A program made the position numbers and the translations under genes. From assembly GCA_041645325.1 (NCBI GenBank), contig JBAZQI010000001.1, positions 8,945 through 72,944 of the forward strand: DNA of 64,000 nt, in the 5' to 3' direction. The stretch is from an archaeon (lineage in GTDB: Archaea > Iainarchaeota > Iainarchaeia > Iainarchaeales > GCA-2688035). Shown piece by piece: positions 4,266-53,769 of this stretch. How positions within the stretch are numbered: position 1 is the first letter of the stretch; each line of letters begins with the position of its first letter. The notes below the pieces were generated by a model. The model saw only the letters and a list, made by a program, of their open reading frames with translations. It was not told the DNA's origin and did no database searches.

Positions 4266-4307
4266 ATATTTGGTTTAAAGCGAAGAACACCCTTTTTCTT
4301 TTTTTTT

Positions 4308-4375
4308 CACTAAAATAGCTTTTAAATACAGGAAAACCCTTTTATATCTAAAATTTCAGGGGAGGTGAAAAGCAA
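4308..4375 (+). promoter_or_regulatory. second copy of conserved promoter/leader block
   Basis: cactaaaatagcttttaaatacaggaaaaccc...ggggaggtgaaaagcaa matches the 3497-3572 block. Confidence 0.55.
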
Positions 4376-4702
4376 ATGGCAATTAAATCAATTACAAGGA
4401 TTGACCCTGTGCAGTACGGGAAAGTGCTGGCAGTGCTATTGGCAATTATATACCTGATTATGGGGCTAGTAATGACCCTGTTTATGGGATTGATTGGCGG
4501 AATCATGGCAATGATTCCAGAGGCTGGTGGCGGATCATTTGCCGGTTTCGGTGTCGGTCTCGGCATAGGCGGCGGCTTGGCAATGACCGTTGCCATGGTT
4601 ATTTTCGGAGCAATCTTTGGCTTCGTAATGGGCGTAATCGGCGCTTTCATCTATAATTTTGTCGCAAGCAAGGTAGGCGGAATAAAAATTGACCTTGAGT
4701 GA
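4376..4702 (+). CDS. small glycine-rich membrane protein
   Basis: 108 aa with two TM segments and a GxGxG-rich loop. Has a strong SD and the duplicated leader; followed by a T12 tract (terminator-like). Confidence 0.45.
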   Translation: MAIKSITRIDPVQYGKVLAVLLAIIYLIMGLVMTLFMGLIGGIMAMIPEAGGGSFAGFGVGLGIGGGLAMTVAMVIFGAIFGFVMGVIGAFIYNFVASKVGGIKIDLE

Positions 4703-4740: not shown

Positions 4741-4856
4741 AGCCTTTTGCCGTGGGCAAAAGCCTTGGGAAAAAGCTTCGCAAAAAAACAGGCAAAGCCA
4801 CCGCACCTGCGAAGCAAACCAATTAAATACATTCCAGCTCAAAATTCATTATTCGT

Positions 4857-5071
4857 GCCGGCGTGGCTGAGCTCGGTTGAAGGTGCTCCGCTCGAAAAGG
4901 CCTTTTTTCCTGCTGGAAAAAAGCCTTGGGAAAACCCAAATTGCTGATGCAATTTGAGGCCTTTTCTTAGAAAGAAAAGCCCTGGGAAAAGAAAGCAATG
5001 CTGATGCATTGCTAAACGCGAGGAACGGAGTAGGTCGAAAGGCCTCACAGGTTCAAATCCTGTCGCCGGCG
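4857..5071 (+). tRNA. tRNA-Ser(CGA), class II, with a ~128-nt intron at 37/38 (4897-5024)
   Basis: Acceptor GCCGGCG/CGCCGGC. D-arm GCT-GAGCTCGGTTGAA-GGT. Anticodon stem CTCCG(4886-90)/CGGAG(5026-30), loop CTCGAA|intron|A. Variable arm GGTC-GAAA-GGCC. T-arm ACAGG-TTCAAAT-CCTGT. Discriminator G. No encoded CCA. Confidence 0.6.
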
Positions 5072-5072
5072 A

Positions 5073-6509
5073 TTAGAGTTTTCTTACAGTTCCCTTGTTT
5101 GCATCAACTTCAATTAGGTCGCCTGTTTTGATTGCTTTTGTTGCAAGCCTTGTTCCGACAATGCAGGGGATGCCGAATTCTCTGGCAAGAATCGAAGCGT
5201 GGGATGTGAGACCGCCTTCGTCTGTAACAATTGCAGCGGCCTTGCTTGCGATTAAAACCATTGTTGGCTGTGTCATTGTCGTAACCATTACTTCGCCTTT
5301 TTTGAATTCCCTTAAATCCTTTTCAAGCGTTGGCAAATCCCTCACCAAAATAACCCTTGCTTTGCCTTTTGCTTTGCCAGGGCATGCAATTGTTCCGCTT
5401 ATTTCCGTCACAGAGATTTCTTTTTTGAAGCCAACTTCTTTTTCCGCAACCAACAATGCTTCTTCGCCTGAAAAAAAGCGCAGTTGCAGGTTGTCCAGCC
5501 AAAAAAGGTAAAATTTTTTTCTATTGGCGATTTCTTCTTTGCTTAATTTAATTTCACGCTCCAAGAAATTCAAAACGTCCTCAATGTTATAAGTCCACAT
5601 AAAATCATCAATCGTTTCTCCAACCCTTGCCGCAATTTCCCTGAACATGTTTTGGAACAAGAATTCAGCACCGCCCCAAACTGCTTTTGTTTCCATCCTG
5701 TCAATTGCGGACTTTTGGAAAATAAGGGCAAGTTCCGACGCTTGTTCGCTCCCTTGCAGGCCGGCCAAAATTTCCTTCTGCTTGTTTGCAAGCTCAATGC
5801 TTTTCCGCCGTATTTCATTTGTTTTCAGCAAGACCTCTGCTTCGCTTATTTTCCCCAATGGCAGGGCTTTTTCTTTTAGGAAACTTACAGCCGTGCTCTC
5901 ACTATATGTGTTAAAGAAAAGCCAGGGGTGTTTTTTTGCGTGCTCTAAAAGCGGTGTTTCATCGCCTGGCAAAGCAGCCTTTAGAAAATCTATTTCCTCC
6001 CTTTTAATAGCATCCACTTCACAAGGGGTCGTTAAAATAGTGAAATATGAGCTAATCTGCTCTTCTGAAAATGAATTCTGGTTCAGCAGCTTCTTCAATG
6101 CTTTTTCCGCCGGCTTGAGGAACTCCGGCTGTGATGCGGAAAAACAGGGCAGCAGCCTTTCATACGCGGTTACATAATGGTTGAACAGCTTGGCAAGCCC
6201 TTCGTTGCCCAGCTCCCTTAAATCCATTTTCTCCTTTTCGCTATACAATTCAAAAAAATTTTTTCGCGCGGCATTTGACTGTTCTAAAACCTTCCTGAAG
6301 AATGACTCCGCCAAAAGCTTTTTGCCTTCTTTCACGGTTTGCAGGTTATCATATTTTTTTACGTAATTGTGCAGCTGCCTGTTTTCAACCAGGGAAAAAC
6401 TGTTTTTTCTTACCGCCCCAAAAAAATGTCTCTGGGTGGCGTAATACCTGGTCCAGCACTCAGCAGAAATTGCGCTATGGCTCTCACCCCAGTCAAAAAT
6501 CCATTCCAA
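5073..6509 (-). CDS. PEP-utilizing-enzyme mobile-domain protein (PEP synthase/PPDK-like C-terminus, novel N-terminal region)
   Basis: C-terminal ...GGLTSHASILAREFGIPCIVGT... is a phosphohistidine swivel domain. The N-terminal roughly 380 aa was not recognised. Confidence 0.65.
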   Translation of the reverse strand: MEWIFDWGESHSAISAECWTRYYATQRHFFGAVRKNSFSLVENRQLHNYVKKYDNLQTVKEGKKLLAESFFRKVLEQSNAARKNFFELYSEKEKMDLRELGNEGLAKLFNHYVTAYERLLPCFSASQPEFLKPAEKALKKLLNQNSFSEEQISSYFTILTTPCEVDAIKREEIDFLKAALPGDETPLLEHAKKHPWLFFNTYSESTAVSFLKEKALPLGKISEAEVLLKTNEIRRKSIELANKQKEILAGLQGSEQASELALIFQKSAIDRMETKAVWGGAEFLFQNMFREIAARVGETIDDFMWTYNIEDVLNFLEREIKLSKEEIANRKKFYLFWLDNLQLRFFSGEEALLVAEKEVGFKKEISVTEISGTIACPGKAKGKARVILVRDLPTLEKDLREFKKGEVMVTTMTQPTMVLIASKAAAIVTDEGGLTSHASILAREFGIPCIVGTRLATKAIKTGDLIEVDANKGTVRKL

Positions 6510-8757: not shown

Positions 8758-9534
8758 TTACCTGGTGTTCATGTTGATGTTCCCAAATCTTCTGTTTCTT
8801 TCATCGATGTTTGATATTGCTGCATTTAGCGCTCTCGTTTTCGCACGGTGTTGAATGTAAGGCTTTAACGAATTAAGCAATTCAACAAGGTAAAATTTTT
8901 TGCTTATTACCAAACTCCAGTAATCTCCATTGTGCACGTATCCTTCGCGGGTAACATATCCTTTCCTTGCACCAAGACACAACTTTCTGCATTTTATCCC
9001 GAATTTTGGAAGTGTTTCAAGTATTTTTTCTAATAATGCTTTGTCATAATTTCCCAAAGCATAAACTGCCTGCCCTTTGGAAATGCCAATGTGCCCCTCT
9101 GCGTCTGTAAATCCCGCTAAAAAGGAGAAGAAAACATCTTCTTTTTGGAAGATCCAATCTGGGGCAACTTTACTTAATAAGAAGCTAAAACTTAAGGGGA
9201 GACCAACTCCGATACTTTTGGCTCCTCGTTTGTTTTTCTTTGAGATCCAAAGTGTAGAATACTTTTGGAACATGCTTTGAATCAGTTGCAGTTGTTCTTC
9301 TTTCGTTGTGCCGCATTCAATTGAGATTGTTTCACTATTTTTACCGCCTGTTCTTGCTCTCAAATCACCTATCCTAAAGCCAATTAGGTAAGCCTTTTCC
9401 AACAAATTGCCGCTAAAATCCTTCCGAGGATAAATCATTTGAGCACCCGCAGGGGTTCTTGTTTTTATCCCGTACTCTATCAATTTCTGTGCACAGTGCT
9501 TCTTGAAAATCCATATAGCTTTTCTATTTCCCAA
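8758..9534 (-). pseudogene. LAGLIDADG homing endonuclease domain (two motifs), 3' part of a frameshifted HTHx4-LAGLIDADG gene
   Basis: LIGFRIGDLRAR and LAGFTDAEGHIGISKG motifs. Its first residues (KKHCAQKLIEYGIKTR) complete the fourth HTH repeat of the upstream ORF in another frame. Confidence 0.7.
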
Positions 9535-10151
9535 CTGGAAAGCCTTTTCTTGCCGTAGAGTTCCAGCAGGGTTTCTTTACTTGGCACATTTTGATTTGGG
9601 CTTCTGGGCAGTCTTGCCTTGATTCCAAACTGCTTAAGCCTTTTCCAGATAGTAGCTTGACAGCAGTTGTATTTCTCAGCTATTTCAAAGGTTGTCAAAC
9701 CCTGTTTTATGTAAAGTTCAATTAGTTCCTTTTTGGTTATTTTTACAAAGCGGCCGTTTGAAGGCTTGGTCTTTATTTTATATTCCCTAAGCCTGTTGAG
9801 AATTGTAGTCATTTTGCAGTCAAACACTTTGGCTATTTCGCTTGGGGCAAGTTTTCTCTTTTCGTATAATTCAATCAAGTCCTCTTTTGGGATTTTTATC
9901 TTCTTTTTCTTTACAAAAAGTTTCACTGCTTCAGCAGTTGTTCTGGGCTTAATGCCATAAAATTTCAGCCAGTAGCAGATTGAGCCGGCGGTTCGGTCAA
10001 AAAGTTTCCCTATTTCTGATGTAGGACGTTTCTGCCTAGTGTACAACTCTTCCAACACTTCTTTCGAAATTTCAGCTTTCACTCTCCCACCGCACAAAAT
10101 ACGGTTTTGCCGTTTAAAATCGCTTTGAAAGAGCAGGTTTCCGCTAATCAC
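9480..10151 (-). pseudogene. four tandem ~45-aa helix-turn-helix repeats, 5' part of the frameshifted homing-endonuclease gene
   Basis: Repeats KE(V/D)L(E/I)ELY..(K/R)....EI.K......TI..RLK.(Y/F)GIK(P/T/A)R appear 4 times. GTG start overlaps the stop of a 34-codon upstream ORF (GTGA). Confidence 0.6.
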
Positions 10152-10690: not shown

Positions 10691-13600
10691 ATGGCGCTTG
10701 AGGAAGATGCTGATGATGAATCTGATTTTTCCCCTGATTTTTCTGCAAAAGCGGGGAAGGCTGGTGCGAAGCAAATTTCCCCTGATGAGGGAAGCGAAAG
10801 CCCCTATGTTTCCAAGTTTCTTGAATTTTTTGAGGCCAATTACAAGAAGGAATTGGAGCGGCTTGTTGAAAACTATCCTGACAAGAGAAGCCTTGAGGTT
10901 GACTTCAGGCTGCTTGAGCAGTTTGACATAGAGCTTGCGGACGCGATTTTGGACTCTCCTGACCTGCTGCTTGAAGCCGCAAAGGACGCGATTGAGCAGA
11001 TTGAGGTTCCTGCGCTTGAAATTGAAATCTTTTCTCCGCATGTGCGCTTTTTCAACATCCCGAAAGAGCATGAGCCTTTGGTGAGGGACATAAGCGCTGC
11101 ACAGCTTGGAAAGTTTATTGCGGTTGAAGGTGTTGTAAGGCAGATTACCACTGTGCTGCCAAAGCTCAAGGTTGCGGTGTGGAAATGCAGGCACTGCGGC
11201 AACACTTACGAGAAAGTGCAGGATGACCAGCAGCTCAAAATGCCTTCTTTCTGCGAATGCAGGCACAGGGACTTTGACCTTGTGCCGGAGCAATCCGAGT
11301 TCATTGACAGCCAGCGTGTTGAAATACAGGAGCCCTTGGAAAGGCTGAAGGGAAACGAGCAGGCCTCTACATTGCAGGTATACATTGCCGACGACCTTGT
11401 CAACAGGATAAGTGCAGGGGACAAGACAAGATTTACAGGGGTACTGAGGCTTGCGGTGCCGGACAAGAAGAAAACAGTTTACGGCAGGTACCTTGAGGCC
11501 TTTCATTTGGAGGAAACCCAGCGCGAATTCCTTGACGTTGAGATATCGCCTGAAGAGGAAAAGGAAATAAAGGATTTGGCGTCAAGCCCTGACATTTATG
11601 AAACGCTTATAAAAAGCATTGCGCCCGCAATTTACGGCCACGAAAAGGTCAAGGAATCAATCATCCTGCAGTTGTTCGGCGGCGTCAAGAAGAACCTGCC
11701 CGGCAACCAGACTGTGAGGGGAAACATCCACGTTTTGTTGGTGGGTGACCCTGGTTGCCTTGTTGCTGATGAAAGGATTGTGCTTGGCAATGGTGCAATT
11801 GAAAAAATCGGCAGCATTGGTTCAAGGCACTTGGAGGAAATAAACCTGCAGGTGCTCACAGGGCAGGGTGGCGCGAAAAGGGATACAGCAACTGTTTTCC
11901 ATTATTACAAGAGCCAGCCTGTGATTGAAATAGTTACAGAGAGTGGAAAAAGCATCAAGGGAACGCCAAACCACCCTCTTCTGTGCATTTCAAAAGAAAA
12001 CAGCCGTGTTGCAAGAAATTGGAAGCGCCTTGACGAATTCAGAGAAGGGGACAAGGTTGCGGTAGTGACTGGAATTCCCTGCACGATTACCCGTTACATT
12101 GAGACTGGCTTTAACCAATTGCCGCCTATTGGCGGGAGCAAATTCAAGGGTTCCTTACCTGAAAAGGTTACACCGGAGCTGGCTTCTTTTTTGGGTTATA
12201 TGGTTGGAGACGGCTGGGTTAGAAACTATGAAACGGCCTTTGTTGTGGCGGATAATGAAAAAGAGCTGTTGGAGCCGCTTCTCAAAATGTGTGAAAACCT
12301 GTTTGCGATAAAATCCTCTGTTGTAAGAAGAAAGCTTGAGGGAAGAAAAGTCTGGCTGAATTATGCAAGCATTTATTCGAAAAGCATTTCGCAAAACTTG
12401 CTCTTTTTGAGGGAAAAGCGTGTTCCAAACCCCATACTTAAGTCAGGCAACAAGGTTGTGGCATCCTTTTTGAAATGGCTTTTTACCGCAGACGGTTGCG
12501 TTTTCAACAATGGGCGGGGGAGGAGAGCTGTTTCATTTAAGGCAAAAAATATTGAACTGCTAAGGGACCTGCAAGTGCTTCTCCTCAGGTTTGGCATTCA
12601 CGGCAGAATAACTGGGAATTCACTTCAAATAAGGCGGGGCAGGGACATCATAAAGTTTGCGAAAAAAATCGGGTTTGCTTCAAAAAAGAAACGGGCTACA
12701 CTAAAAAAACTCGCGGAAGAAGCAAAGTCTTTTGCAGGGTTTAATTCCCAACGAAGCGAAAAAATAGTAAAAATTATTCAGCATGAGCCGGAAGATGTTT
12801 TTGATATTGAAGTTCCTGGCAGTCATCGTTTCATAGCAAACGGTGTCATCTCGCACAACACAGGCAAATCTCAGCTTCTTCAGGCCGCAAACACCATTGC
12901 GCCCAAAAGCATTTACACCGCGGGAAAAACCACGAGCGGCGTTGGATTGTGCATTGCGCCTGATTCTTTGGTGCTGAATGGCAATGGCTTTAAGAGGATT
13001 GAAGACTTTGTTGAAGAAAATTTCTGCAATGAAAAAGCGTTTGAGGAAATTCCCGGCGCATGGTCAAATATTTTTGATGGAAAGAGCCTTTCTTTGGACA
13101 ATGGGCTAAAAGCCGAAGAGGGAAAAATTTCCAAGATTTGGAGGCTAAAAGCCCCTGAAAAAATGTTTAGGGTGAAGACAAGGCTCGGAAAGGAGCTTGA
13201 GCTCACGCCGCATACTTCTCTTGTTAGACTAAAAGAGGGCAATGTTGGCTGGGTTGAGGCGCAGGAAATAAGCGAAGGCGATTTCATTGCCTGCGCAAGA
13301 AAACTGCCTGAAGGCGGCAGAAAAAACATTCCTGCAATCGGCATAATTGCGCATGACAAAAACGTGCGGATAAAGGACAATGTTGCAGTGCAATTGAAGG
13401 AAATAACCGACGGGCTTATGGCAAAGTACGGTTCTTTGCAGGAAATAGCCAAAAGCATTGGCAAAAGCAGGAATACGCTTTATTCAATCAGGAACAAAAA
13501 ATTCTATCACGGCATTTCTTTGAAGAATTTTGTTGAACTTGGCAAAGAGGCAGGATTTTCATTGGAAGCGCTTTCAGGGTGTGTTTCCACGATTTTCATA

Positions 13601-15577
13601 AGCTATGGAAAGGAAATGAAAATTCCGCGATATTTGGATAACGAGCGGCTTGCTTATTTGGCCGGCTTGGCTTTGGGTGACGGCAGCCTGTATGAGGCCG
13701 ATAGAAGTGCGTCTTTGAGGATTTTCAGCGCTTCACCGCAGCTTTTGCAGGAAGTTGACAACATTGCCCTGGATTTGTTTGGCTTGGAAGCTGAGAAGAT
13801 TGATGATGGAGTCAGGGTTCCTGCCAGGAGAATAAAATTCAGGGCTGTTTGTGAGCTTTTGAAGGCATTTGGCCTGGATAAAAGGAAAGGCAAAATAAGA
13901 ATTTCGCATCTTGCCTCGGAAATGCCTAACAATATTCTTTCAAAGCTCTTGCAGGGCTTGTTTGACACCGACGGCTGGGTTTGCAGTGGCAAAGACAGTC
14001 ACTGCATTGGCATGACAACGATTAGCAGGGATTTGGCGCAAAGCGTGCAGCTTTCTTTGCTAAAATTCGGCATCAGAAGCAAATTAAGGGAAAGAAAGAA
14101 AGCCGGCGTGCTTGCCGTTGGCAGAAAAATCTCTGTCACAAGCAGGCACAATCAGTATTGCATTGAAATAATGGGCAAAGAAAGCGTTGGGCTGTTCAAA
14201 GAGCACATCGGATTCAACCTTGCGCGAAAAAAAGAGAAATTGCAGGAACTTGCAACAAGCGTTCCAAAAGGCAACACAAACATTGATGTTGTTCCGCAAA
14301 TTCAAAGCCTGCTGAAAGCGGAGAAAGCAGAGTGGATTTACAGCAGTGGCAGGTCAAACATTTCAAAGGAAAAGCTGCAAAGGCTTGCAGGCGAGCAAGC
14401 ACTTGGCAATTCATTGTTGAAGCAATTGGCGGAATCTGATGTGATGTGGGAGCAAGTTGCGGAAAAGGTTTGCATAGAGTCGGCATACCCTTTTGTTTAT
14501 GATTTCTCGGTTGAAAAAAACCATAATTTTGTTGCAAACGGAATTTTTGTGCACAACACTGCATCTGCAGTCAAGGACGATTTTGGCGAGGGCGGCTGGA
14601 CATTGAAGGCTGGTGCGCTTGTTTTGGCCAGCGGCGGGGTTTGCATGGTGGATGAGCTTGACAAGATGGAGGCAGAGGACAGGAGCGCAATGCACGAGGC
14701 AATGGAACAGGGCATGATTTCAATAGCAAAGGCTGGCATTGTCACAAGGTTCAAGTCCGACACAAGCATCTTGGCCGCGGCAAACCCAAAGATGTCAAGG
14801 TTTGAGCCCTACCAGCCTTTCATTGAGCAGATTAATTTGCCGGCTTCGTTGATTTCAAGGTTTGACCTTTTCTTCATGATAAAGGACGTTTTGGACAAGA
14901 CAAAGGACGAGGCAATCACGGCGCACATCCTCAAAACGCACAAGGGCGGGGAAATGATTTCACAGTACAAGCAAAAGGGCAGGGTCATGCTGAAACAAGA
15001 CCAGGATGACATTGACCTTATTTCCTCGCCGCCGATACTGCCGGAATTGCTGGGAAAATACATTTCCTATGCAAGGCAAAACGTTTTCCCGATAATGAGC
15101 AAGGAGGCAATACAGCTCATTGGTGATTTTTACATCGGGCTGAGGGACATTGGGCGAAAAGAGGGAAGCTATGCGGCAACCCACAGGCAGCTTGAGGGCC
15201 TTGTAAGGCTTTCAGAGGCAAGCGCAAGGGTGCGCTTAAGCGACATTGCGGAAAAAGAGGACGCTGAAAGGGCAATAAGGCTTGTGAAGGCTTCTTTGAG
15301 CGATGTTGTCACAGACCCTGAAACAGGCAAGATTGATTATGACATCATTATGACCGGGCAGACTCACACCCAAGTTACGAACATGCGCAAAATCCTCACC
15401 ATCCTGAGGGAAAAGGCGAAAGAGCAGGACAATGTGCCGTTGCAGGATGTGCTCAACGAAGCTTCTGTGCAGGGAATTGACGCGGAAAGGGCGCGTGACC
15501 TCATAGCAAAGCTCGAAAAAAACGGCGAGCTCTACAGGCCAAGGCACAATTTCCTCAAGCCGACGAGAAACGAGTAA
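10691..15577 (+). CDS. mcm: MCM replicative helicase precursor carrying two inteins (mature about 724 aa)
   Basis: N-terminal OB/zinc (CRHCGN..CECRH). Walker A GDPG|intein|TGKSQLL. Walker B/arginine-finger region GALVLASGGVCMVDELDKM after the second intein. C-terminal wHTH. Confidence 0.9.
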   Translation: MALEEDADDESDFSPDFSAKAGKAGAKQISPDEGSESPYVSKFLEFFEANYKKELERLVENYPDKRSLEVDFRLLEQFDIELADAILDSPDLLLEAAKDAIEQIEVPALEIEIFSPHVRFFNIPKEHEPLVRDISAAQLGKFIAVEGVVRQITTVLPKLKVAVWKCRHCGNTYEKVQDDQQLKMPSFCECRHRDFDLVPEQSEFIDSQRVEIQEPLERLKGNEQASTLQVYIADDLVNRISAGDKTRFTGVLRLAVPDKKKTVYGRYLEAFHLEETQREFLDVEISPEEEKEIKDLASSPDIYETLIKSIAPAIYGHEKVKESIILQLFGGVKKNLPGNQTVRGNIHVLLVGDPGCLVADERIVLGNGAIEKIGSIGSRHLEEINLQVLTGQGGAKRDTATVFHYYKSQPVIEIVTESGKSIKGTPNHPLLCISKENSRVARNWKRLDEFREGDKVAVVTGIPCTITRYIETGFNQLPPIGGSKFKGSLPEKVTPELASFLGYMVGDGWVRNYETAFVVADNEKELLEPLLKMCENLFAIKSSVVRRKLEGRKVWLNYASIYSKSISQNLLFLREKRVPNPILKSGNKVVASFLKWLFTADGCVFNNGRGRRAVSFKAKNIELLRDLQVLLLRFGIHGRITGNSLQIRRGRDIIKFAKKIGFASKKKRATLKKLAEEAKSFAGFNSQRSEKIVKIIQHEPEDVFDIEVPGSHRFIANGVISHNTGKSQLLQAANTIAPKSIYTAGKTTSGVGLCIAPDSLVLNGNGFKRIEDFVEENFCNEKAFEEIPGAWSNIFDGKSLSLDNGLKAEEGKISKIWRLKAPEKMFRVKTRLGKELELTPHTSLVRLKEGNVGWVEAQEISEGDFIACARKLPEGGRKNIPAIGIIAHDKNVRIKDNVAVQLKEITDGLMAKYGSLQEIAKSIGKSRNTLYSIRNKKFYHGISLKNFVELGKEAGFSLEALSGCVSTIFISYGKEMKIPRYLDNERLAYLAGLALGDGSLYEADRSASLRIFSASPQLLQEVDNIALDLFGLEAEKIDDGVRVPARRIKFRAVCELLKAFGLDKRKGKIRISHLASEMPNNILSKLLQGLFDTDGWVCSGKDSHCIGMTTISRDLAQSVQLSLLKFGIRSKLRERKKAGVLAVGRKISVTSRHNQYCIEIMGKESVGLFKEHIGFNLARKKEKLQELATSVPKGNTNIDVVPQIQSLLKAEKAEWIYSSGRSNISKEKLQRLAGEQALGNSLLKQLAESDVMWEQVAEKVCIESAYPFVYDFSVEKNHNFVANGIFVHNTASAVKDDFGEGGWTLKAGALVLASGGVCMVDELDKMEAEDRSAMHEAMEQGMISIAKAGIVTRFKSDTSILAAANPKMSRFEPYQPFIEQINLPASLISRFDLFFMIKDVLDKTKDEAITAHILKTHKGGEMISQYKQKGRVMLKQDQDDIDLISSPPILPELLGKYISYARQNVFPIMSKEAIQLIGDFYIGLRDIGRKEGSYAATHRQLEGLVRLSEASARVRLSDIAEKEDAERAIRLVKASLSDVVTDPETGKIDYDIIMTGQTHTQVTNMRKILTILREKAKEQDNVPLQDVLNEASVQGIDAERARDLIAKLEKNGELYRPRHNFLKPTRNE
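11756..12859 (+). mobile_element. intein 1 (368 aa) inserted in the MCM P-loop, with LAGLIDADG homing-endonuclease domain
   Basis: Begins with Cys directly after GDPG and ends ...VISHN followed by T. Internal motifs LGYMVGDGWV and LKWLFTADGCV. Confidence 0.85.
12950..14557 (+). mobile_element. intein 2 (536 aa) in MCM AAA+ core, with LAGLIDADG domain
   Basis: Begins CIAPDSLVL... and ends ...GIFVHN followed by T. Motifs LAGLALGDGSL and LQGLFDTDGWV. Confidence 0.85.
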
Positions 15578-17336: not shown

Positions 17337-17575
17337 TAAGCCTTTCTTTCTAAAGAAAGAAAGCCTTGGGAAAGAAAGAAGCCTTTTTTGCTTGGGCAAA
17401 AAAGCCTTGGGAAAGAAAGAAGCCTTTTTTGCTTGGGCAAAAAAGCCTTGGGAAAAGAAATTTTCCCTTTTTTTTTCGCCAGCCCCAAGCAAAGCATGGC
17501 TTTGCGGGCCTCGTACCCTGCAGGGCACTCGGTTTTTCCAAAAGGCTGTTGGGAAAAACGCCTTCGGCAAAAGGG
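17337..17575. repeat. array of AAGCCTTGGGAAAG / GCTTGGGCAAAA modules plus palindromes upstream of aIF2-beta
   Basis: (aaagccttgggaaagaaagaagccttttttgcttgggcaaaa) occurs twice plus a partial copy. Palindromes ctttctttctaaagaaagaaag, gcaaagcatggctttgc and ccctgcaggg are also present. Confidence 0.65.
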
Positions 17576-25103: not shown

Positions 25104-25571
25104 TCACAAAATCTTTTTTGCTTCTGCAGGGTGTGACCATAATTTTTCTTGCATTATTTTCCGGATTGCCTGCAGGAAGCCTTTCGCTATTTTGATTGTT
25201 GTGTCCGCATCTGACTCTTGGATTTCGCTGTTCCTTTCCAAGCCATACATGAGGTCGTGTCTCTGCAATCGAAGGGCATTGAGTTCGCTTAGGTATTTTC
25301 TTTCAATTTTGCCGCCGTATTTTTCGTTGATGTAAACATAAACTGCAAAGTGGCTTCTTTCCTTAAAGCCGTCCTTGAACAGCAGCGCTCTTGCTGAATG
25401 AAACATGGATGCGTAAGCGCTGATGATTGCGCTTTCAAACAGGTTGTGTTCGAATTCGGCTTCGGCAAGATCCAGCTTGTGCTCAGCCATTTCAATTGAA
25501 GATTTTGCTTTTTCCGGGTCGGGTTTCGATTTTGCCAGCAGGCCTTGTTCCAGGCATTGTTCAGTGTTCAT
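25104..25571 (-). CDS. HEPN-domain protein (toxin component of HEPN/MNT pair)
   Basis: Rx4HxY motif (RLQRHDLMYG). Its start overlaps the MNT stop. Confidence 0.75.
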   Translation of the reverse strand: MNTEQCLEQGLLAKSKPDPEKAKSSIEMAEHKLDLAEAEFEHNLFESAIISAYASMFHSARALLFKDGFKERSHFAVYVYINEKYGGKIERKYLSELNALRLQRHDLMYGLERNSEIQESDADTTIKIAKGFLQAIRKIMQEKLWSHPAEAKKIL

Positions 25572-26116
25572 GTAACCACGGGCTTTTCCCCAAACAAAAC
25601 AATGGAGTCATAAATGACATTTTCATAAAATACTTTGTCCTCAACAGCTTTCTTTTTCCAATCTGACAGCGAGAAGAGCGAAAAATTGGTTTCTTTGCCG
25701 AGTTTGTTTGTAAAACCAAAGTCGGTTTTGGCTTTTTGGCTGGAAATGACAAGCAGGTCAATGTCGCTTTTTTCGTCATTTGTCCCCTTTGCAAAGCTGC
25801 CATACAGCAGAATAGAAATAGGGTGCTGCATTTTTTTCACGGTTTGCTCCACAATTCTGGAATCTGCAATTTTGTCCAGGTTAAAGAGAATCTTCCACTG
25901 CCTGCACAAAGGGTTTTCCAAGTCAGCCCGGTATTGGTAAGTCTTGCCAATGATTTTCAGGCAAGCAATGCCTTTATTGCGCATGTAATCTAATGCGGTT
26001 CTTGTGGCTCCTGGGCTGAGGCACGTTTCCCTTGCCAGCCCCCTGACGGAAAAGCTTTTCATGGGCTCGGAAGTCAAAACGCGAATTGCCTTTATCAGAG
26101 CATATTTTTCCAGCAT
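25568..26116 (-). CDS. minimal nucleotidyltransferase (MNT) with N-terminal wHTH
   Basis: ILLYGSFAKGTNDEKSDIDLLVIS (GSx9-13DxD). The ORF-track start at 26182 is probably too long; Met23 sits about 25 nt downstream of a TATATTTAAATATA box. Confidence 0.7.
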   Translation of the reverse strand: MLEKYALIKAIRVLTSEPMKSFSVRGLARETCLSPGATRTALDYMRNKGIACLKIIGKTYQYRADLENPLCRQWKILFNLDKIADSRIVEQTVKKMQHPISILLYGSFAKGTNDEKSDIDLLVISSQKAKTDFGFTNKLGKETNFSLFSLSDWKKKAVEDKVFYENVIYDSIVLFGEKPVVT

Positions 26117-26467
26117 AACAATACAAAATACAATTGTATATTTAAATATAACGATGGGTTCATAGTTTACAATATAAAACAAGGGCTTTGTTGTTATGGG
26201 CGCTGCCGTGAATATTCCTTTGGAACGCGAATATTGGTATTCACGATTTTTTTCTTCGGTCTTTGCCGGAACGCCTTTCGGTTATTCCATAAATAGCGTC
26301 TTCAGGATGTGGGCTGGTAATTGCATATTCAAAACCTATATCCCGTACTCTTCTGTCCTTTCCTGTTCTTCTATCAAGCGGGTTTTTTACGCTTCTTCTG
26401 TCGATTGGCTTGATTGGCTTTAACGGCATTTAATTATCGCCATTAACCTTTTTGTTTTCCCTTCTTT

Positions 26468-32789: not shown

Positions 32790-32965
32790 TTTGCGAAGCA
32801 TTTTTCCCAAGGCTTCCGAGTACCCTGCGGGGTACGAGGCAAGAAAAGCTGTTGCTTTTCTATGTTTTGCTGTTGCAAAAAAGGCTTTGCGCGAAGCGCA
32901 TTTTTCCCAAGGCTTTTTTGCTGTTGCAAAAAAGGCTTTTTGATGAAACTTTTTTTCAAAAGTTT
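32790..32965. repeat. inverted-orientation copies of TTTTCCCAAGGCTT repeat with hairpins
   Basis: gcatttttcccaaggcttccgagtaccctgcggggtacgagg ... gcgcgaagcgcatttttcccaaggcttttttgctgttgcaaaaaaggc. Confidence 0.6.
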
Positions 32966-36353: not shown

Positions 36354-36434
36354 AGCCGCCACAGCCGGCTGGTCTGAGTGCCATCTTCGCGCCTTTGTGG
36401 CGCTCGATGCCACAGGCTCGTTGTTGCTCGCCAA
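36354..36434 (+). repeat. family-2 repeat copy A (AGCCGCCACAGCCGGCTGGT ... GGCTCGTTGTTGCTCGCCAA)
   Basis: Conserved 5' and 3' ends shared with copies at 39356, 39755 and 53277. The central hairpin is gcgcc-tttgt-ggcgc. Confidence 0.6.
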
Positions 36435-38315: not shown

Positions 38316-39110
38316 ATGGGGAAAATAATAACAATTGCATCGGGAAAAGGCGGCGTTGGAAAAACAACGCTCACAGCAAACGTAGGCATAGCGCTTGCCC
38401 AAAAAAACTTCAAAGTGCTTCTCATTGACGCCGACATTGCAATGGCAAACCTGAGCCTGCTGCTTGGAATGCAGTCCTCGCCCATAACGCTCCATGATGT
38501 GCTCGTCGGAGAGAGCGATGTTGAAGACGCAATATACGAGGGGCCTGCGGGTGTCAACTTTATTCCAAGCGGCTTGAGCCTTGAATCCTACAGGCGCGTT
38601 GACACAGAGCGCCTTGAAGGCGTGGTAAGGAAGGTTGCGGCAAAGTACGATTTTGTGCTCCTTGACGCGCCTCCGGGAATAGAAAAAAACGTGATGTCCG
38701 CGCTTGCCGCGGCCGACGAAGTTCTCCTGATTACAATGCCCCTTTCCCCAAGCATTGCCGACATGCTCAAGACAAAGATTGTGAGCCAAAGGCTTGGCTC
38801 AAACCCGATTGGCATTGTGGTAAACTTCAGCACCGGCGAAAAAGGCGAAATAAGGAACGAGGACATAATGAAAATGCTTGAGCTGCCTGTTTACGGCACA
38901 ATCCCTTACGACCCGGAGGTAAGGCGGAGTTACATGCAGCAGAACGTGCAGCCTGTCATGATCAGAAAGCCCACAACCCCCGCCGCAATTGAAATGAGAA
39001 AGATTGCCGCAAGGATTGCGGGAGTGAAGGCGCAGGAGTTCCTTCAGGGCGCAAAGAAGCACGAAGGGTTTTTAAGCAGGTTGCTGGCAAAATTCAGAAA
39101 AGGCAAATGA
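38316..39110 (+). CDS. minD: MinD/ParA-family P-loop ATPase
   Basis: Deviant Walker A SGKGGVGKTT and a switch region; 264 aa. Confidence 0.85.
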   Translation: MGKIITIASGKGGVGKTTLTANVGIALAQKNFKVLLIDADIAMANLSLLLGMQSSPITLHDVLVGESDVEDAIYEGPAGVNFIPSGLSLESYRRVDTERLEGVVRKVAAKYDFVLLDAPPGIEKNVMSALAAADEVLLITMPLSPSIADMLKTKIVSQRLGSNPIGIVVNFSTGEKGEIRNEDIMKMLELPVYGTIPYDPEVRRSYMQQNVQPVMIRKPTTPAAIEMRKIAARIAGVKAQEFLQGAKKHEGFLSRLLAKFRKGK

Positions 39111-39133
39111 TTCTTGTAAGGGGGACCAATTTT

Positions 39134-39352
39134 ATGGCAAACAGACCATTTGACATGCTCAATGACGCATTGGGAAAAGAAGTACTCATTGTGCTCAAAG
39201 GAAACACGCTGGTAAGGGGAACGCTCAAGGCGTTTGACGTGCACCTCAACCTCGTGCTGGACAATGCGGAACAGCTGGAAAACGGCGAAACAAAAACAAA
39301 ATACGGCAAGCTCATGGTAAGAGGCGACAGCGTAGTCCTCATAAGCGCATAA
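39134..39352 (+). CDS. Sm-like archaeal protein (SmAP/LSm)
   Basis: Sm1/Sm2 motifs ...VLIVLKGNTLVRGTLKAFDVHLNLVLDNAEQL...MVRGDSVVLIS. Confidence 0.85.
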   Translation: MANRPFDMLNDALGKEVLIVLKGNTLVRGTLKAFDVHLNLVLDNAEQLENGETKTKYGKLMVRGDSVVLISA

Positions 39353-39355
39353 AAG

Positions 39356-39439
39356 AGCCGACACGTCCGGCTGGTACGAGCAAGGGCCCTATTTCGCTCC
39401 CTTTTGGTCGCTCAATAGGGCGGCTTCGCTGGCAAGTCC
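39356..39439 (+). repeat. family-2 repeat copy D (diverged 3' end)
   Basis: agccgacacgtccggctggtacgag ... central hairpin ccctatt/aataggg. Lies 4 nt after the Sm stop. Confidence 0.55.
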
Positions 39440-39541
39440 TTCTTCTTATGGGAAAAAAAACTTTGGAAAAAACCCGTGTTCAATGTCACGAGTTCACTTC
39501 GTTCGCATTTTTAACCTTTTCTTGAAACTATTTTTCATTAA

Positions 39542-39613
39542 GGGCCCTTGGTCTAGTGGTATGATGCTCGGTTGGCAATCGGGAGGTCGCGGGTTCAATT
39601 CCCGCAGGGTCCA
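39542..39613 (+). tRNA. tRNA-Ala(GGC)
   Basis: Acceptor GGGCCCT/AGGGTCC with the G3:U70 alanine identity pair. Anticodon loop TTGGCAA. T-arm GCGGG-TTCAATT-CCCGC. Discriminator A. Confidence 0.85.
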
Positions 39614-39639
39614 AAACCCATTGAGCCCAAGCGAAATGG

Positions 39640-39732
39640 GTTCTCCTGTGGCAGTTGTAATTTTCCAAAGGCTTTTGTGCAACAGCCTTTAACAAAGGCT
39701 GGCGAAAAATGCTTCGCGAGCACAAAAGGCTT
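39640..39732. repeat. AAGGCTTTT-family hairpin modules inside the insert downstream of tRNA-Ala
   Basis: ttccaaaggcttttgtgcaacagcctttaacaaaggctggcgaaaaatgcttcgcgagcacaaaaggctttt. Confidence 0.55.
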
Positions 39733-39754
39733 TTCAATTCCCGCAGGGTCCAAA
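39733..39754 (+). repeat. 22-bp duplicate of the tRNA-Ala 3' end (ttcaattcccgcagggtccaaa)
   Basis: Identical to 39594-39615. Lies 117 bp downstream of the tRNA. Confidence 0.75.
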
Positions 39755-39823
39755 GCCGCCACTGCCGGCTGGTCAGGGTACGATTGCCTTCGGCAATCCT
39801 ACAGGCTCGCTATTGCTCGCCAT
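39755..39823 (+). repeat. family-2 repeat copy B
   Basis: gccgccactgccggctggtcagg...gattgcc-ttc-ggcaatc...ggctcgctattgctcgcca. Confidence 0.6.
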
Positions 39824-39932
39824 TGTGCAAAGTGAAATGGTTTTTTTGCCAAAAGTGCCGCAAATTGGCTTTAATGTTGTTTTTGGCAGCTGACGAAAGC
39901 TTTTTTTAGGCGGTAGGCGTATTCTATTTGAA

Positions 39933-41597
39933 ATGGTTTCCAAAAAGGAGCTTCTTTTGAAGAGCATCCGCGAACTGCTCGCCTTGAACGTTTCCGACAA
40001 GGAAATAGCGATGAACCTCAAAGAGGTTGGCATTGACGAGGCCAATGCAAAAGCCCTTATTCTTGAGGCAAGGCAGCCAGAGGCGCCTGCGCAGGCCCAG
40101 GAGCCTGAGGCAAAGTCTGTTCCTTTCTTTGGCGGCTTTGGGCTGAAAAAAGAGGGCAAAAGCGTTTCGCCTGAAGAAGAGGCAAAAGAGGTTGTGGCTG
40201 AAAGGGAGCAGGCGACTGAAGACCTTGCTGCCGAATCCGTTGAGGGTGAAGAAGAGCCTGAAGGAGGGTCGGAAGAGATTGCGGAAGGCCTTGGCTTTTG
40301 GGACAAATCCGGGGAAAAAAAGCCGGCTAAGGGCAAGGCGGAAAAGAAAGCGCCTTTTGCCTCCGTTGAAACGCCGCCGCTTGGGATTTTTAAAAAAAAT
40401 TCCCTTGATTCGGAGGACGGGGCGGATGAAGCAGGCGAGGATGCCCCTGCAAGAAAAGAAAAGCCAAGCCTTGTCGAGGACATCCTGGTGAGCAAGCTTT
40501 GGGAGAAAGGAATTTTTGCAACCGTAAACCAGAAGCTTGCTGAAATGGAAGACCTCAGAAGGGACCTTGATGCTGTGCTTGACAAAAAGGTTGCGGATGC
40601 AAGCAAAAGGGAAATGGAAAAAATAAAGGTTTTGTTTGACAGCCAGCGCGCGCTTTTGGTGAGCAAGGTTGATTCCGAGCTTGAGGCAAAGGCAAAGGGC
40701 TTTGCGGAAATGATTGAGATGAAGCTCAGGGAAATGCGGGGCATAAACAAGCAGATTGCCTCCCAGATTGAAACAGTGAAGGAAATGGAGCGCGGCTCAA
40801 AGGTCAGTGCCGATGCCATTTCACAAAGGCTGGAGGAAGCCGACAAGCTCAAGGAACGCATTCTCTCCTCGCTGAACGGCGAGCTCATAAACACCAGGAG
40901 CGAAAGCAGGTCCCTTGTGGAGGAAATGGGCAAAAAGCTCGGTGACATGGATGAAAGGATAAACAAGACGCTGCAGCTTGAAAACCAGATTGTTGAAGGG
41001 CTTGTCAAGGAAGCCGAGCGCAGGGTTGTAGCCCTGCTTGAGGAAAAGTCCGCAGAGTTTTCAGCCGAAACCAAGAGTAGAATCGAGGATATTGGAAAAC
41101 TCAAGGATTCCTTCAAAGCGGCCCAAAAAGCCGAGTTTGCAGAGACCGAAGAGGGCATTGCCGCAAAGCTTTCCTTGTTTGAGGAAATGATTGGCAAAAA
41201 CGGCCGGGCCCAGAAGGCCGAGCTTGCAAAGGCGGAAGAGGGCATTGCCGCAAAGCTTTCCTTGTTTGAGGAAAGGGCTGACAAAAAGCTTGAGGCGCTG
41301 GACAAGCTGCAAAAGCAGATTTCCCTGGATTTCAAGCCTGAAAAATTCAGGCAGACAATGCAGGAGCTCAACGAGTTCAAGGCCCAGTTCGTTGACGCAA
41401 TAAAGCAGAACGCCGAAAGCTTCAACGAGGGAATAAAGAATCTGAACCAGCAAAGCCAGGTGATTGAAAGGCAGTTCATGTTACGTGCGGAAAAAATAGA
41501 CAAAAAGATTGCGGAACTCGATGCCTTTGAAAAAAGTTTCGCAAAAGAAATGGGCCTTGCAATAGAAAAAATCCCGAAAAAGGGCAGCGGGAAATAG
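39933..41597 (+). CDS. long coiled-coil protein with acidic N-terminal region and internal 29-aa tandem repeat
   Basis: 554 aa with predicted heptad-rich sequence. A 40-bp perfect DNA direct repeat at 41148-41187 and 41235-41274 encodes EEGIAAKLSLFEE. Confidence 0.55.
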   Translation: MVSKKELLLKSIRELLALNVSDKEIAMNLKEVGIDEANAKALILEARQPEAPAQAQEPEAKSVPFFGGFGLKKEGKSVSPEEEAKEVVAEREQATEDLAAESVEGEEEPEGGSEEIAEGLGFWDKSGEKKPAKGKAEKKAPFASVETPPLGIFKKNSLDSEDGADEAGEDAPARKEKPSLVEDILVSKLWEKGIFATVNQKLAEMEDLRRDLDAVLDKKVADASKREMEKIKVLFDSQRALLVSKVDSELEAKAKGFAEMIEMKLREMRGINKQIASQIETVKEMERGSKVSADAISQRLEEADKLKERILSSLNGELINTRSESRSLVEEMGKKLGDMDERINKTLQLENQIVEGLVKEAERRVVALLEEKSAEFSAETKSRIEDIGKLKDSFKAAQKAEFAETEEGIAAKLSLFEEMIGKNGRAQKAELAKAEEGIAAKLSLFEERADKKLEALDKLQKQISLDFKPEKFRQTMQELNEFKAQFVDAIKQNAESFNEGIKNLNQQSQVIERQFMLRAEKIDKKIAELDAFEKSFAKEMGLAIEKIPKKGSGK

Positions 41598-45004: not shown

Positions 45005-45658
45005 ATGAATCTGCCGACGCGCGAACAATGCCTTGCATTGCTTGAAAAATACAATATTCCCAGGCACATTGTAAGGCACTCGCTTGCGGTTGAAAGGGTT
45101 GCGGTTTTTCTTGCAAAAAAATTCAACGAAGCAGGCATTCCAGTGGATGCCGGGCTTGTGAGCAGGGGCGCGCTCTTGCATGACATTGACAAGATTGAAA
45201 CCTTGAAAGAGGGCTTTGGGCACCTGCACGGCAAAATGGGCAGGGAAATCCTTGAAAAAGAGGGCTTTCCTGAAATCGGAAAAATTGCGGAGGCGCATCA
45301 TTTGGAAAGGGTGCTTTCTCTGAAGCCTTTTTTCCCGCGGGAAAAAAGCCTTGGGAAAAGTGCGCCTGTTGGCGCAAAGCCTTTTTTGCTTGGGCAAAAA
45401 AGCCTTGGGAAAAGTGCGCCTGTTGGCGCAAAGCCTTTTGACTGCTGGGAGGAAAAGATTGTTTATTATGCCGACAAGCGCGTCAACCACGACAAAATTG
45501 TTTCCCTTGACGAGCGTTTTGATTATTTGCTCAAAAGATATGGCATTGAAAAGGGCATTCGCCGCACATTCCTGCATTGCAAACCTCTTGTGGAAAAGCT
45601 TGAAAAGGAGATTTTCTCAAAAATAGATGCAGGTCCTGAATTGGAGGGATTGTCTTGA
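45005..45658 (+). CDS. HD-domain phosphohydrolase carrying an in-frame repeat-element insertion
   Basis: H..HD..K metal motifs (RHSLAVE, LLHDIDK, YYADKRVNHD). Residues encoded by 45323-45440 (KSLGKSAPVGAKPF, twice) derive from the AAGCCTTGGGAAAA repeat. Confidence 0.7.
   Translation: MNLPTREQCLALLEKYNIPRHIVRHSLAVERVAVFLAKKFNEAGIPVDAGLVSRGALLHDIDKIETLKEGFGHLHGKMGREILEKEGFPEIGKIAEAHHLERVLSLKPFFPREKSLGKSAPVGAKPFLLGQKSLGKSAPVGAKPFDCWEEKIVYYADKRVNHDKIVSLDERFDYLLKRYGIEKGIRRTFLHCKPLVEKLEKEIFSKIDAGPELEGLS
45323..45440 (+). repeat. two tandem partial copies of AAGCCTTGGGAAAA-GTGCGCCTGTTGGCGCAAAGCCTTTT module, in-frame within the HD gene
   Basis: Direct sequence repeat with ttttcccgcgggaaaa and gcgcctgttggcgc palindromes. 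Confidence 0.75.
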
Positions 45659-53208: not shown

Positions 53209-53235
53209 AAAACCACTTCATTCCCATTTTATCAC

Positions 53236-53276
53236 TTCAGGTAAATAACCTTTTTTCCATTCTTAATCTTTGCCCT
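53236..53276 (+). repeat. 41-bp direct repeat DR1, a duplicate of the 3' end (last 14 codons + stop) of gene 53353..53769
   Basis: ttcaggtaaataaccttttttccattcttaatctttgccct versus 53357-53397 tttaggtaaatgactttttttccattcttaatctttgccct. Both reverse complements encode RAKIKNGKKVIYLK followed by a stop. Confidence 0.75.
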
Positions 53277-53350
53277 AGCCGTCACGTCCGGCTGGTACGG
53301 GCACAACCTCGCTTGGGCTCGGTTGAGCCGGCTCGCTGCTGCTCGCACTT
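53277..53350 (+). repeat. family-2 repeat copy C, bracketed by the 41-bp direct repeats
   Basis: agccgtcacgtccggctggtacggg...ggctcggttgagcc...ggctcgctgctgctcgca. Confidence 0.6.
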
Positions 53351-53352
53351 AA

Positions 53353-53769
53353 TCATTTTAGGTAAATGACTTTTTTTCCATTCTTAATCTTTGCCCTTTT
53401 TGCGTATTTTTCCAGGTAGTGCACCGTGCTCTTTGAAATGCCTGTAACGCGCTCCACTTCGCGCAGGCTCTGGTAGTCCTTTCTCATTTCAAGCGCCTGC
53501 TGCATTTTCTCCAAAGGCATTGAAATCGGCCTTCCCGGCCTTGCCACTGTTTCCAAAACAACGCCTTTTTGCCAGAGCAATGCAACGCTTTTCTTCGGCA
53601 TTCTTGCAATGCAGCTTTTGCTTGCGCTCGCAGTTTCAAGCATTGCGCATTTTTTCAGGATTCCTTCAAGCAATTCCTTTTTTACCGGCCTGACAAAATG
53701 CAGTTTTGCCGCTTCCTTCGGAATATCCCTGGCGTCCATTCCCGGCAAAACAGAAAAAATCATGCACAA
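53353..53769 (-). CDS. HTH DNA-binding protein (resolvase/sigma-70 region 4-like HTH at C-terminus)
   Basis: SLREVERVTGISKSTVHYLEKY helix-turn-helix. Confidence 0.5.
   Translation of the reverse strand: MCMIFSVLPGMDARDIPKEAAKLHFVRPVKKELLEGILKKCAMLETASASKSCIARMPKKSVALLWQKGVVLETVARPGRPISMPLEKMQQALEMRKDYQSLREVERVTGISKSTVHYLEKYAKRAKIKNGKKVIYLK

Follow-up and report, generated by a model that had tools for sequence, protein, structure and literature searches.

A duplicated tRNA-Ala 3' end in an Iainarchaeia-like genome read as a tRNA-fragment recombination scar

We analysed a 64,000-nucleotide stretch of DNA from a DPANN archaeon of Iainarchaeia/Diapherotrites-like type (contig JBAZQI010000001.1 of assembly GCA_041645325.1, positions 8,945 to 72,944; hereafter the window), in which the 3' end of an intact tRNA-Ala(GGC) gene is repeated, the second copy of the tail starting 139 bp downstream of the first. 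The repeat is built of units of tRNA tail plus trailer, the second copy carries the native downstream flank, the trailer between the copies is conserved within the lineage, relatives are polymorphic for the arrangement, and no recombinase gene was found among the window genes checked. Our tentative preference, held at somewhat less than even confidence, is for passive partial tandem duplication through illegitimate or homology-anchored recombination between variants of the locus. We therefore file the locus as a tRNA-fragment recombination scar; nothing points to an active mobile element. A first-pass annotation had instead suggested a miniature integrated element or the remnant of a larger one.

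The tRNA-Ala tail occurs twice

The 22-mer TTCAATTCCCGCAGGGTCCAAA has two exact occurrences in the window, as the first-pass annotation had reported, and allowing up to three mismatches yielded no further match there (0 expected, 100 shuffles). With one mismatch tolerated, the repeat reaches 25 nt. The 20 nt held in common with relatives begin with the T-loop and end with the discriminator; the remaining two A's are flank. A direct repeat of this extent is what an attachment-site (att) scar of a tRNA-targeting element would show, and the proposal that its geometry fits recombination at a tRNA 3' end stands. The tRNA and the two copies are as follows.

39542-39613, + strand: intact tRNA-Ala(GGC) gene that has a G3:U70 pair and does not encode CCA (ARAGORN; Rfam tRNA, 61.7 bits)
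39594-39615, + strand: repeat copy 1, 20 nt (T-loop; 3' halves of T-stem and acceptor stem; discriminator) followed by AA
39733-39754, + strand: repeat copy 2, tail of the older or native unit, in no tRNA (Rfam and ARAGORN negative; alignment to relatives L046 and L011)

Relatives are denoted here by locus number. ARAGORN and Rfam agree on the tRNA-Ala call, and neither program (Rfam at its gathering threshold and at E<=10) detected a second tRNA or pseudo-tRNA around copy 2 or any tRNA-like match in 39616-39760, which bears out the earlier view that copy 2 belongs to no other tRNA. Three independent assemblies (L001-L003) agree exactly on the arrangement, which excludes an assembly artefact. 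That copy 2 represents a second or pseudo-tRNA, part of a split or intron-containing tRNA, or a misassembly is accordingly hardly credible, even with L012 carrying a second full tRNA-Ala at this locus and with long introns in the tRNA-Ala genes of relatives. An intron or split tRNA was rejected by a hand check, because a bulge-helix-bulge with the T-stem as outer helix needs 4 bp of UUCA against UUCA, which cannot form.

The DNA between the copies is a lineage trailer

The 117-bp spacer had been described as consisting of AAGGCTTTT-type hairpin modules. This description fits only the right 68 nt (39665-39732), whereas the left 48 nt (39617-39664) form a different, conserved module. We refer to the trailer as X, to its left part as X-left, and to two families of hairpin modules as family-1 and family-2.

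39617-39664, + strand: X-left, conserved trailer with the hairpin CCCATT-GAGCCCAAGCGA-AATGGG (39617-39640), then TTCTCCTGTGGCAGTTGTAATTTT (T-rich tail)
39665-39732, + strand: family-1 (AAGGCTTTT-type) palindrome, arms 39667-39680 and 39720-39733 (inverted repeats, fold)
39754-39821, + strand: family-2 copy B, hairpin-B subtype TACGATTGCC/GGCAATCCTAC (nhmmer E=3e-10)
39820-39878, + strand: X', a decayed second X trailer (CCATTGTGCAAAGTGAAATGG...) following copy B (local alignment to 39617-39680)

X-left is 88-92% identical to its counterparts in L011, L012 and L026 and 98% identical to that of L008, where X is a plain tRNA trailer with no second tail. By comparison, four-fold degenerate sites of the neighbouring MinD gene are only 39-46% identical between the two sister clades concerned (A and B, below) and hence saturated, indicating that X is constrained or recently exchanged lineage DNA and not decaying foreign sequence.

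X' and 39617-39680 are identical at 43 of 66 aligned columns (z = 4.3, equalled by 2/1000 shuffles), X' aligns with the X of L011 (z = 5.0), and in L011 a degenerate second tail again precedes the start of X (z = 7.9). The presence of X-like sequence both beyond copy B and beyond the second tail of L011 indicates that the duplicated unit is the tRNA tail together with its trailer. Family-2 copy B, which interrupts the homology of the units, is present in one of them and absent from the other. Homology past the short repeat, of X with X' and of X with the L011 stub, is the pattern of a partial tandem duplication; as judged from these alignments, such a unit structure would be predicted by partial tandem duplication of native DNA and not by an element with its own cargo. 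The roughly 120 bp that had been proposed as element cargo are thus not foreign, consisting of a lineage trailer and resident hairpin modules, with a decayed copy after copy B. The spacer has no terminal inverted repeats, all inverted repeats in 39530-39860 being internal hairpins.

X also bears a limited resemblance to family-2. Within the window, the 12-mer of the X-left hairpin loop occurs only in X-left (- strand) and in hairpin B of the family-2 copy at 53277 (53309-53320, + strand), and reverse-complement local alignments of X to family-2 give z = 5-9. X therefore contains a family-2-type hairpin in reverse orientation, the likeness being confined to a shared hairpin and local similarity. 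Full membership of X in family-2 was rejected, as the family-2 profile matches X weakly (nhmmer, E = 2-10).

Relatives share, amplify, erode or lack the second tail

Orthologous loci were gathered through homologues of a lineage-specific 554-aa protein encoded downstream and through DNA patterns; a genome scan with a degenerate 20-mer returned 33 loci, about a third of them relevant, and a metagenome scan with a pattern running from the tRNA anticodon to the 3' end returned two. In a tree built on the 554-aa orthologues, clade A comprises the window, L008, L009 and L011, and its sister clade B comprises L012, L026, L043, L049 and L048; L033, L050, L051 and L052 are outgroups, and L027 and L042 form a distant pair. 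The order Sm protein gene, tRNA-Ala(GGC), 554-aa protein gene is kept across all loci, with the following layouts behind the tRNA.

Outgroups (L033, L050, L051, L052) and L046/L049: tRNA, 1-3 nt, family-2; no duplication
L048: nothing but a short spacer behind the tRNA
L008 (97% relative): tRNA, then X-left and family-1 modules, with both the second tail and copy B lacking
Window: tRNA, X, 22-mer, family-2 copy B
L043: X, 20-mer, family-2; the contig begins inside X, with the tRNA off the contig
L026: layout as in L043, second tail cut to 14 nt
L012: tRNA#1, two identical 95-nt units of X plus 20-mer, family-2, and behind it another tRNA-Ala(GGC) gene preceded by an upstream region of its own
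L011: tRNA and family-2, next X and the degenerate tail CCCGCAGGGTTCA, after which X begins anew
L027 (distant): TTCGATTCCCGCAGGATCCA, separated from the tRNA by 52 nt

The tail duplication is found in at least five other lineages, being amplified in one and eroded in two, and is absent in at least eight, including the 97% relative; even the sister genomes L043 and L049 differ, the former with and the latter without a second tail. Relatives have one, two or three tails, plus truncated and degenerate ones, as expected of copy-number variation and decay. Rather than a one-off event, the arrangement is a feature that has been reshuffled within two sister clades.

We also asked which of the two copies is native. 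The segment 39733-39822 (copy 2 and copy B) is 87% identical over 92 nt to the tRNA end and family-2 of L046, and 39733-39848 is 82% identical over 117 nt to the tRNA end, family-2 and X start of L011, indicating that the second copy carries the native flank and that the 20-mer plus X is the extra piece. The native downstream flank thus sits after the second copy and not after the first. The synteny comparison called for by the first-pass annotation recovered unduplicated sites as well: in L046/L049 the tRNA is followed by a T and then by family-2 of the same subtype, L033 and L050-L052 share this layout, and L048 is likewise unduplicated.

Several observations accompany this comparison. The tandem tRNA-Ala(GGC) genes of L012 lie at 5426-5498 and 5844-5915 and have different upstream regions; the second, which has several wobble pairs and a T-stem mismatch, may be decaying. 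Between the window and L008 (~523-545) there is an indel of ~150 nt (39686-39834) that holds the second 22-mer and copy B, and its borders of TTGTGCAA(C)AG repeats suggest a microhomology deletion or insertion. Contigs L026, L043, L015 and L033, labelled Chloroflexota/Chloroflexi or Thaumarchaeota, show Iainarchaeia-type Sm, tRNA-Ala and 554-aa synteny together with family-2 and are probably mis-binned.

A proposed partial tandem duplication between locus variants

Under the reading we favour, the spacer downstream of tRNA-Ala would be a hot spot for the gain, loss and exchange of small hairpin modules. The end of one trailer (X) would have been joined to the tRNA gene of another variant of the locus, exactly where its T-loop begins, one variant having and the other lacking family-2 behind the tRNA, and the partner being perhaps a sister chromosome or DNA of a related strain. 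The product would consist of unit 1 (tRNA body, 20-mer and X) and unit 2 (20-mer, family-2 copy B and decayed X'), so that the second 22-mer would be the tail of an older unit of tRNA-Ala 3' end plus trailer. The tRNA would remain intact, and the second 20-mer, deprived of its partner strands, would be inert. Unequal crossing-over between 20-mers could later expand or remove units, and other deletions could erode them. That the founding junction was illegitimate or microhomology-based and not specified by an enzyme, that different alleles took part in it, and that the second 20-mer is without function are the parts of this scheme that we infer.

A number of observations are consistent with this scheme. 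The four outgroup loci have the tRNA followed directly by family-2, and the expected states of exchange and decay are seen in L012 (two 95-nt units and a third 20-mer), L026 (truncated) and L011 (degenerate); from the sequences compared, the second tail appears to have been lost in L048, in L049 and in L008. Two types of region precede the tRNA-Ala gene.

39480-39541, + strand: 'P2'-type region upstream of tRNA-Ala, TTCGCATTTTTAAC...CTATTTTTCATTAA, conserved among relatives

This region, presumably the tRNA-Ala promoter, is kept at tRNA-Ala in L008, L046/L049, L051 and tRNA#2 of L012, and a different 'P1' type is found in L011, L026, L048 and tRNA#1 of L012. Together, the tandem full tRNAs of L012 and the swapping of promoter types among close relatives point to recombination between locus variants. 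Furthermore, trailers contain T-rich arms followed by TTCAA (GGCTTTTTTCAAC in L008, TTTTTTTCAATTG after tRNA#2 of L012), which would offer microhomology to the T-loop sequence TTCAATT. Homologous recombination has been documented in a Diapherotrites population (PMC5905446).

Tandem duplications arise by illegitimate, microhomology-mediated or homology-facilitated recombination, and the present locus resembles them in its head-to-tail units of gene tail and trailer, its variable copy number, and the mosaic distribution of promoters and modules among relatives. Several points nevertheless weigh against this explanation. Here the left boundary coincides with the first T-loop base, as it does to within 2 nt in the distant L027, and this base is the classic crossover site of tRNA-targeting integrases; a random junction predicts neither a breakpoint exactly at the T-loop in two lineages nor a perfect short repeat. 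The second 22-mer is perfect, yet X' is only 81% identical at aligned bases and indel-rich, a combination with a chance of ~0.01 by substitutions alone, so that a recent event, gene conversion or selection would be required. The junction microhomology is short and is not evident in clade B (GGCTG joined to TTCAATT). Family-2 lies in unit 1 in L011 and in unit 2 in the window, and the history of events cannot be uniquely reconstructed. Finally, both gene-tail duplications of the window (the second is described below) bracket a family-2-type module, which passive duplication has to treat as coincidence or as a preference of the modules for gene ends. Taken together, the locus resembles, in look and in working, partial tRNA genes left where recombination has occurred; it displays the hallmarks of a local partial tandem duplication and lacks two that define an integrative element (recombinase, foreign cargo) as well as those of a miniature inverted-repeat transposable element (MITE).

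Search for recombinases and mobile forms

We searched for recombinases with Pfam on 40 open reading frames (ORFs) of the window, a few short ORFs being without a Pfam hit, and in the precomputed annotation of ~20 genes around the tRNA. Neither an integrase nor a transposase turned up among the ~60 window genes checked, which comprise housekeeping genes, an MCM gene with two inteins, LAGLIDADG and helix-turn-helix (HTH) proteins and a HEPN/nucleotidyltransferase pair. Beside the tRNA of relatives no recombinase was found either, except for IS66-like ORFs in L027. There, at 3293-4679, three consecutive ORFs resemble a frameshifted IS66-family transposase and adjoin the tRNA-Ala and its diverged tail, an assignment made by eye from the sequence alone. 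The 22-mer, as a putative attP, had 0 matches in the viral contigs of IMG/VR, a search that does not cover plasmids of the lineage. Around genes inserted downstream of the tRNA in L049, L051, L052 and L027, no distal 20-mer was found at up to four mismatches. The integrase search that had been recommended thus came back empty, and there is no positive evidence for the remnant of a larger element; a miniature element retains some plausibility, although we do not favour it. The family-2 motif gave four matches in IMG/VR, all in high-GC coding sequence, and these were set aside as chance.

These results bear directly on the possibility that the repeat is an integrase-type att scar, in which a small element, or a larger one now reduced to a remnant, brought its own tRNA tail by site-specific integration at the T-loop, the recombinase having since been lost and an att-flanked insert remaining that could accrete in tandem. 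We consider this unlikely, though not to be dismissed lightly. The repeat extends from the start of the T-loop through the discriminator, and mycobacteriophage Ms6 has a 26-bp core in the T-arm of a tRNA-Ala, the T-loop being the probable site of exchange (PMC1762012). The native flank after the second copy, the sites at which the tRNA is followed directly by family-2, the tandem units of L012, the independent case of L027 with the same boundary, and the third 20-mer of L012, which is a hybrid of two resident tRNA tails, would all fit, and partial tRNA genes left by element integration are common in archaea (PMC9897764). Against this stand the want of an integrase among the window genes checked and in the tRNA vicinity of the relatives, the absence of the 22-mer from viral contigs, an insert of only 75-119 bp of host-type trailer and repeat DNA with homology resuming past copy B, a second duplication in the window with a different target and length, and genes inserted downstream of the tRNA in L049, L051 and L052 without flanking 20-mers.

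Partial tRNA genes (attL/attR) flank integrated elements in Thermococcaceae (PMC9897764) and at the tRNA-Ala T-loop used by Ms6 (PMC1762012). As in those cases, the direct repeat begins in the T-loop, the tRNA is regenerated and the displaced native tail keeps its native flank; in contrast, those repeats enclose 9-23 kb or more with an integrase, here 75-119 bp of host-type DNA are enclosed and no integrase was found, and here homology continues beyond the repeat. Cis-mobilizable elements (CIMEs) are att-flanked, lack integration and transfer genes and accrete in tandem (PMC5704250), and the present locus is CIME-like in its att-like repeat on both sides, its want of a recombinase gene and the tandem array of L012. 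CIMEs are, however, kilobase-sized, decayed bacterial integrative and conjugative or mobilizable elements (ICEs/IMEs) with demonstrated mobilisation in cis, whereas here there is no known parent element or integrase. Casposon and CRISPR-type integration duplicates a tRNA-end target or a repeat (PMC4779613, PMC4046053), and similarly a duplicated segment of a tRNA 3' end here brackets inserted DNA and tandem arrays are possible. Casposons make duplications of ~14-15 bp and depend on Cas1 and on terminal inverted repeats; the present locus has none of these.

Family-2 and family-1 hairpin modules

Four family-2 copies, all on the + strand, were identified in the window by nhmmer, starting at 36354, 39356 (copy D), 39754 (copy B) and 53277 (below). 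Both copies that had been noted as flanking the tRNA, B and D, were recovered: copy B has as its first base the final A of the second 22-mer, and copy D ends ~105 bp upstream of the tRNA.

39356-39436, + strand: family-2 copy D, a two-hairpin module beginning 4 nt past the stop codon of the Sm gene (nhmmer E=2e-11)
36354-36425, + strand: fourth family-2 copy, with no flanking duplication (nhmmer E=1.5e-12)

We surveyed family-2 in the window and in L008, L011, L012, L015, L018, L026, L033, L043, L046 and L050-L052. In many genomes it follows tRNA-Ala (GGC and CGC) at a distance of 1-3 nt and the Sm stop codon at one of 0-5 nt; a module occupies the equivalent post-Sm site in L008, L011, L046, L051 and L052, and copy B is 86% and 80% identical to the post-tRNA copies of L046 and L026, respectively. 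Hairpin A is a 5-bp stem (AGCCG-7 nt-CGGCT) with compensatory changes (AU/CG and GC/CG/UA) among 17 copies at 11 loci and some G-U pairs, read on the + strand. Hairpin B varies by subtype, with ~4 subtypes common to several clades, and close relatives can differ in subtype at one site. No Rfam family was found for family-2 or X; in 39340-39940 only the tRNA passes, with nothing meaningful at E<=10. Family-2 may represent either a small RNA missing from annotation or an element of 3' ends.

The family-1 palindrome of the spacer encloses the hairpin CAGCCTTT-AAC-AAAGGCTG (39683-39701), the counterpart of a hairpin that abuts the second 20-mer in L012, L026 and L043. Elsewhere, family-1 modules (AAGCCTTTTTTGC..GCAAAAAAGCCTTGGGAAAAG) form tandem arrays with periods of 41 and 54 nt, in the window at 17338-17460, 45323-45430, 32796-32940 and 4744-4995, and in L052 (1155-1215) one is nested in a family-2 hairpin. 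Similar hairpins fill the long tRNA-Ala introns of L018, L036 and L052; these anticodon-loop introns measure ~60-100 nt, and the genes that contain them (L052 ~1405-1551, L018 ~540-638, L036 ~750-862) were missed by ARAGORN.

A second duplicated gene tail, with family-2 between the copies

The 3' end of a gene for a conserved 136-aa protein (54 homologues, ending ...KNGKKVIYLK) is also duplicated in the window, with a family-2 copy between the two tails.

53222-53276, - strand: distal copy of the 136-aa gene 3' end, still encoding RAKIKNGKKVIYLK and the stop codon (87% over 55 nt, z = 26)
53277-53342, + strand: family-2 copy between the two copies of the 136-aa gene 3' end (nhmmer E=3.5e-10)
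53343-53397, - strand: authentic 3' end of the conserved gene at 53353-53769 (- strand), comprising its final 45 nt and a further 10 nt

The repeats show 4 differences, all synonymous third-position transitions, and encode the same 14 residues; the synonymous-only pattern (~1% by chance) is no more than suggestive, as the copies of L053, which belongs to the genome of L012, differ non-synonymously. In L053 the last 38 nt of the 136-aa gene are in direct tandem with no module between them (2870-2945), and no tail duplication of this gene was found in L054 or L055. Copies within one genome are more alike than they are to orthologues. In the window the distal copy immediately precedes the next gene (108 aa), whose promoter it might contain.

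Gene-tail duplication therefore recurs in the lineage, with different targets and different lengths, and no single site-specific enzyme would be expected to target both of these sites. Among all other family-2 copies of the window and relatives no flanking repeats were found, the copy at 53277 alone being bracketed, and other close direct repeats in 20 loci were only family-1 arrays or coding repeats.

A further explanation is that family-2-type modules are small non-autonomous mobile elements whose insertion at gene 3' ends copies 20-55 nt of the target; X would then be a reversed module, and the L053 tandem duplication the footprint left after loss of a module. We hold this to be improbable. 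In both window duplications the bracketed family-2-type module does have the same orientation with respect to its gene, L053 shows duplicated tails with no module, hairpin-B subtypes are common to clades yet unlike between close relatives at one site, and family-1 is nested within family-2 in L052. However, all other family-2 copies lack flanking repeats, the duplications vary in length (20, 38 and 55 nt), X is without terminal inverted repeats, no transposase was found, the likeness of X to family-2 rests on one hairpin with weak profile scores (nhmmer E = 2-10), and the post-Sm and post-tRNA positions of family-2 are stable across genera. A MITE would produce target duplications of fixed length, and the two family-2-type copies that have repeats have repeats of 20 and 55 nt. 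The stronger proposal, that family-2-type modules and reversed X constitute a new kind of small archaeal mobile element whose landing the gene survives, we consider a shade less probable again. Were it true, the tRNA-Ala tail, 53222-53397 and L053 duplications would be footprints of one kind of element, and DPANN archaea would possess a new insertion mechanism that makes long, variable target duplications.

Repetitive extragenic palindromic (REP), REPIN and MITE-like intergenic hairpin repeats occur in bacteria. Families 1 and 2 are like them in being short, structured, multi-copy and intergenic, often right behind genes, nested and in tandem. They are unlike them in that there is no associated RAYT or other transposase, no terminal inverted repeat and no short fixed target duplication, and in that family-2 positions are conserved across genera.

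A possible role at the RNA level

We also considered whether the second 20-mer is kept for a role in RNA. One possibility is that it captures the trailer segment CCUGUGGCAGUUG, a segment able to pair with CAAUUCCCGCAGG; another is that it supplies an alternative 3' strand, with which the tRNA body would guide end-processing of a downstream family-2 RNA. In the minimum free energy fold of 39530-39840 (z = -3.8) it is the second copy that the trailer segment pairs with, the tRNA staying free, the three positions of the CCUGUGGCAGUUG segment that vary in relatives all keep their pairing through G-U, the 22-mer is perfect next to the decayed X', and family-2 begins 1-3 nt past GGGTCCA in every genome. 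Such a role is nonetheless very doubtful, because L026 has a truncated second copy, L011 a degenerate one and at least eight lineages, the 97% relative among them, none at all, there are no compensatory double changes, and the pairing requires G-U pairs and a mismatch. Passive partial tandem duplication, in which the second 20-mer would be inert, is the reading we tentatively retain.

Implications and genomic surroundings

As a recombination scar, the locus illustrates the plasticity of tiny intergenic spacers in DPANN (Iainarchaeia-like) genomes, with promoters, trailers and hairpin modules around one tRNA swapped, duplicated or lost among close relatives while the flanking genes remain syntenic. 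For annotators it is a warning that fragments of tRNA tails need not signal prophages or islands. Our literature search turned up no account of these repeats, or of such a layout around a tRNA, from DPANN archaea. Of more interest than the scar itself are two by-products, family-2 and the X trailer, which are conserved far past neutral expectation, have no Rfam match and are candidates for roles in 3'-end formation, as small RNAs or as protein-binding sites; gene-tail duplications recur beside these modules.

The tRNA-Ala gene is neighboured by genes for eIF5A, an NYN protein, a MinD/ParA protein and the Sm protein (39107-39352), and the tail region is followed by the 554-aa protein gene (39933-41597) and then tRNA-Val. 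The 554-aa protein, which is coiled-coil-like, contains an in-frame 87-nt tandem repeat (88% identical, 41120-41287) that is also seen in L008 and L009. LAGLIDADG ORFs lie directly downstream of the 554-aa gene in L009 (2762-3736) and L050 (4879-5676), their position varying by genome. In the window, free-standing LAGLIDADG endonuclease-like ORFs occupy 8761-10151, one of them adjoining a multi-HTH ORF, and the MCM helicase gene (10691-15577, 1628 aa) has two inteins with LAGLIDADG domains. The HEPN and nucleotidyltransferase genes are adjacent (25107-26182) and form a toxin-antitoxin-like module. Lastly, an upstream region of ~79 nt with a TTTAAATA box is repeated at 2757-2789, 3494-3572 and 4298-4376, before three consecutive genes for Yip1/DUF4013-type membrane proteins, which looks like a tandem paralogue array with duplicated promoters.

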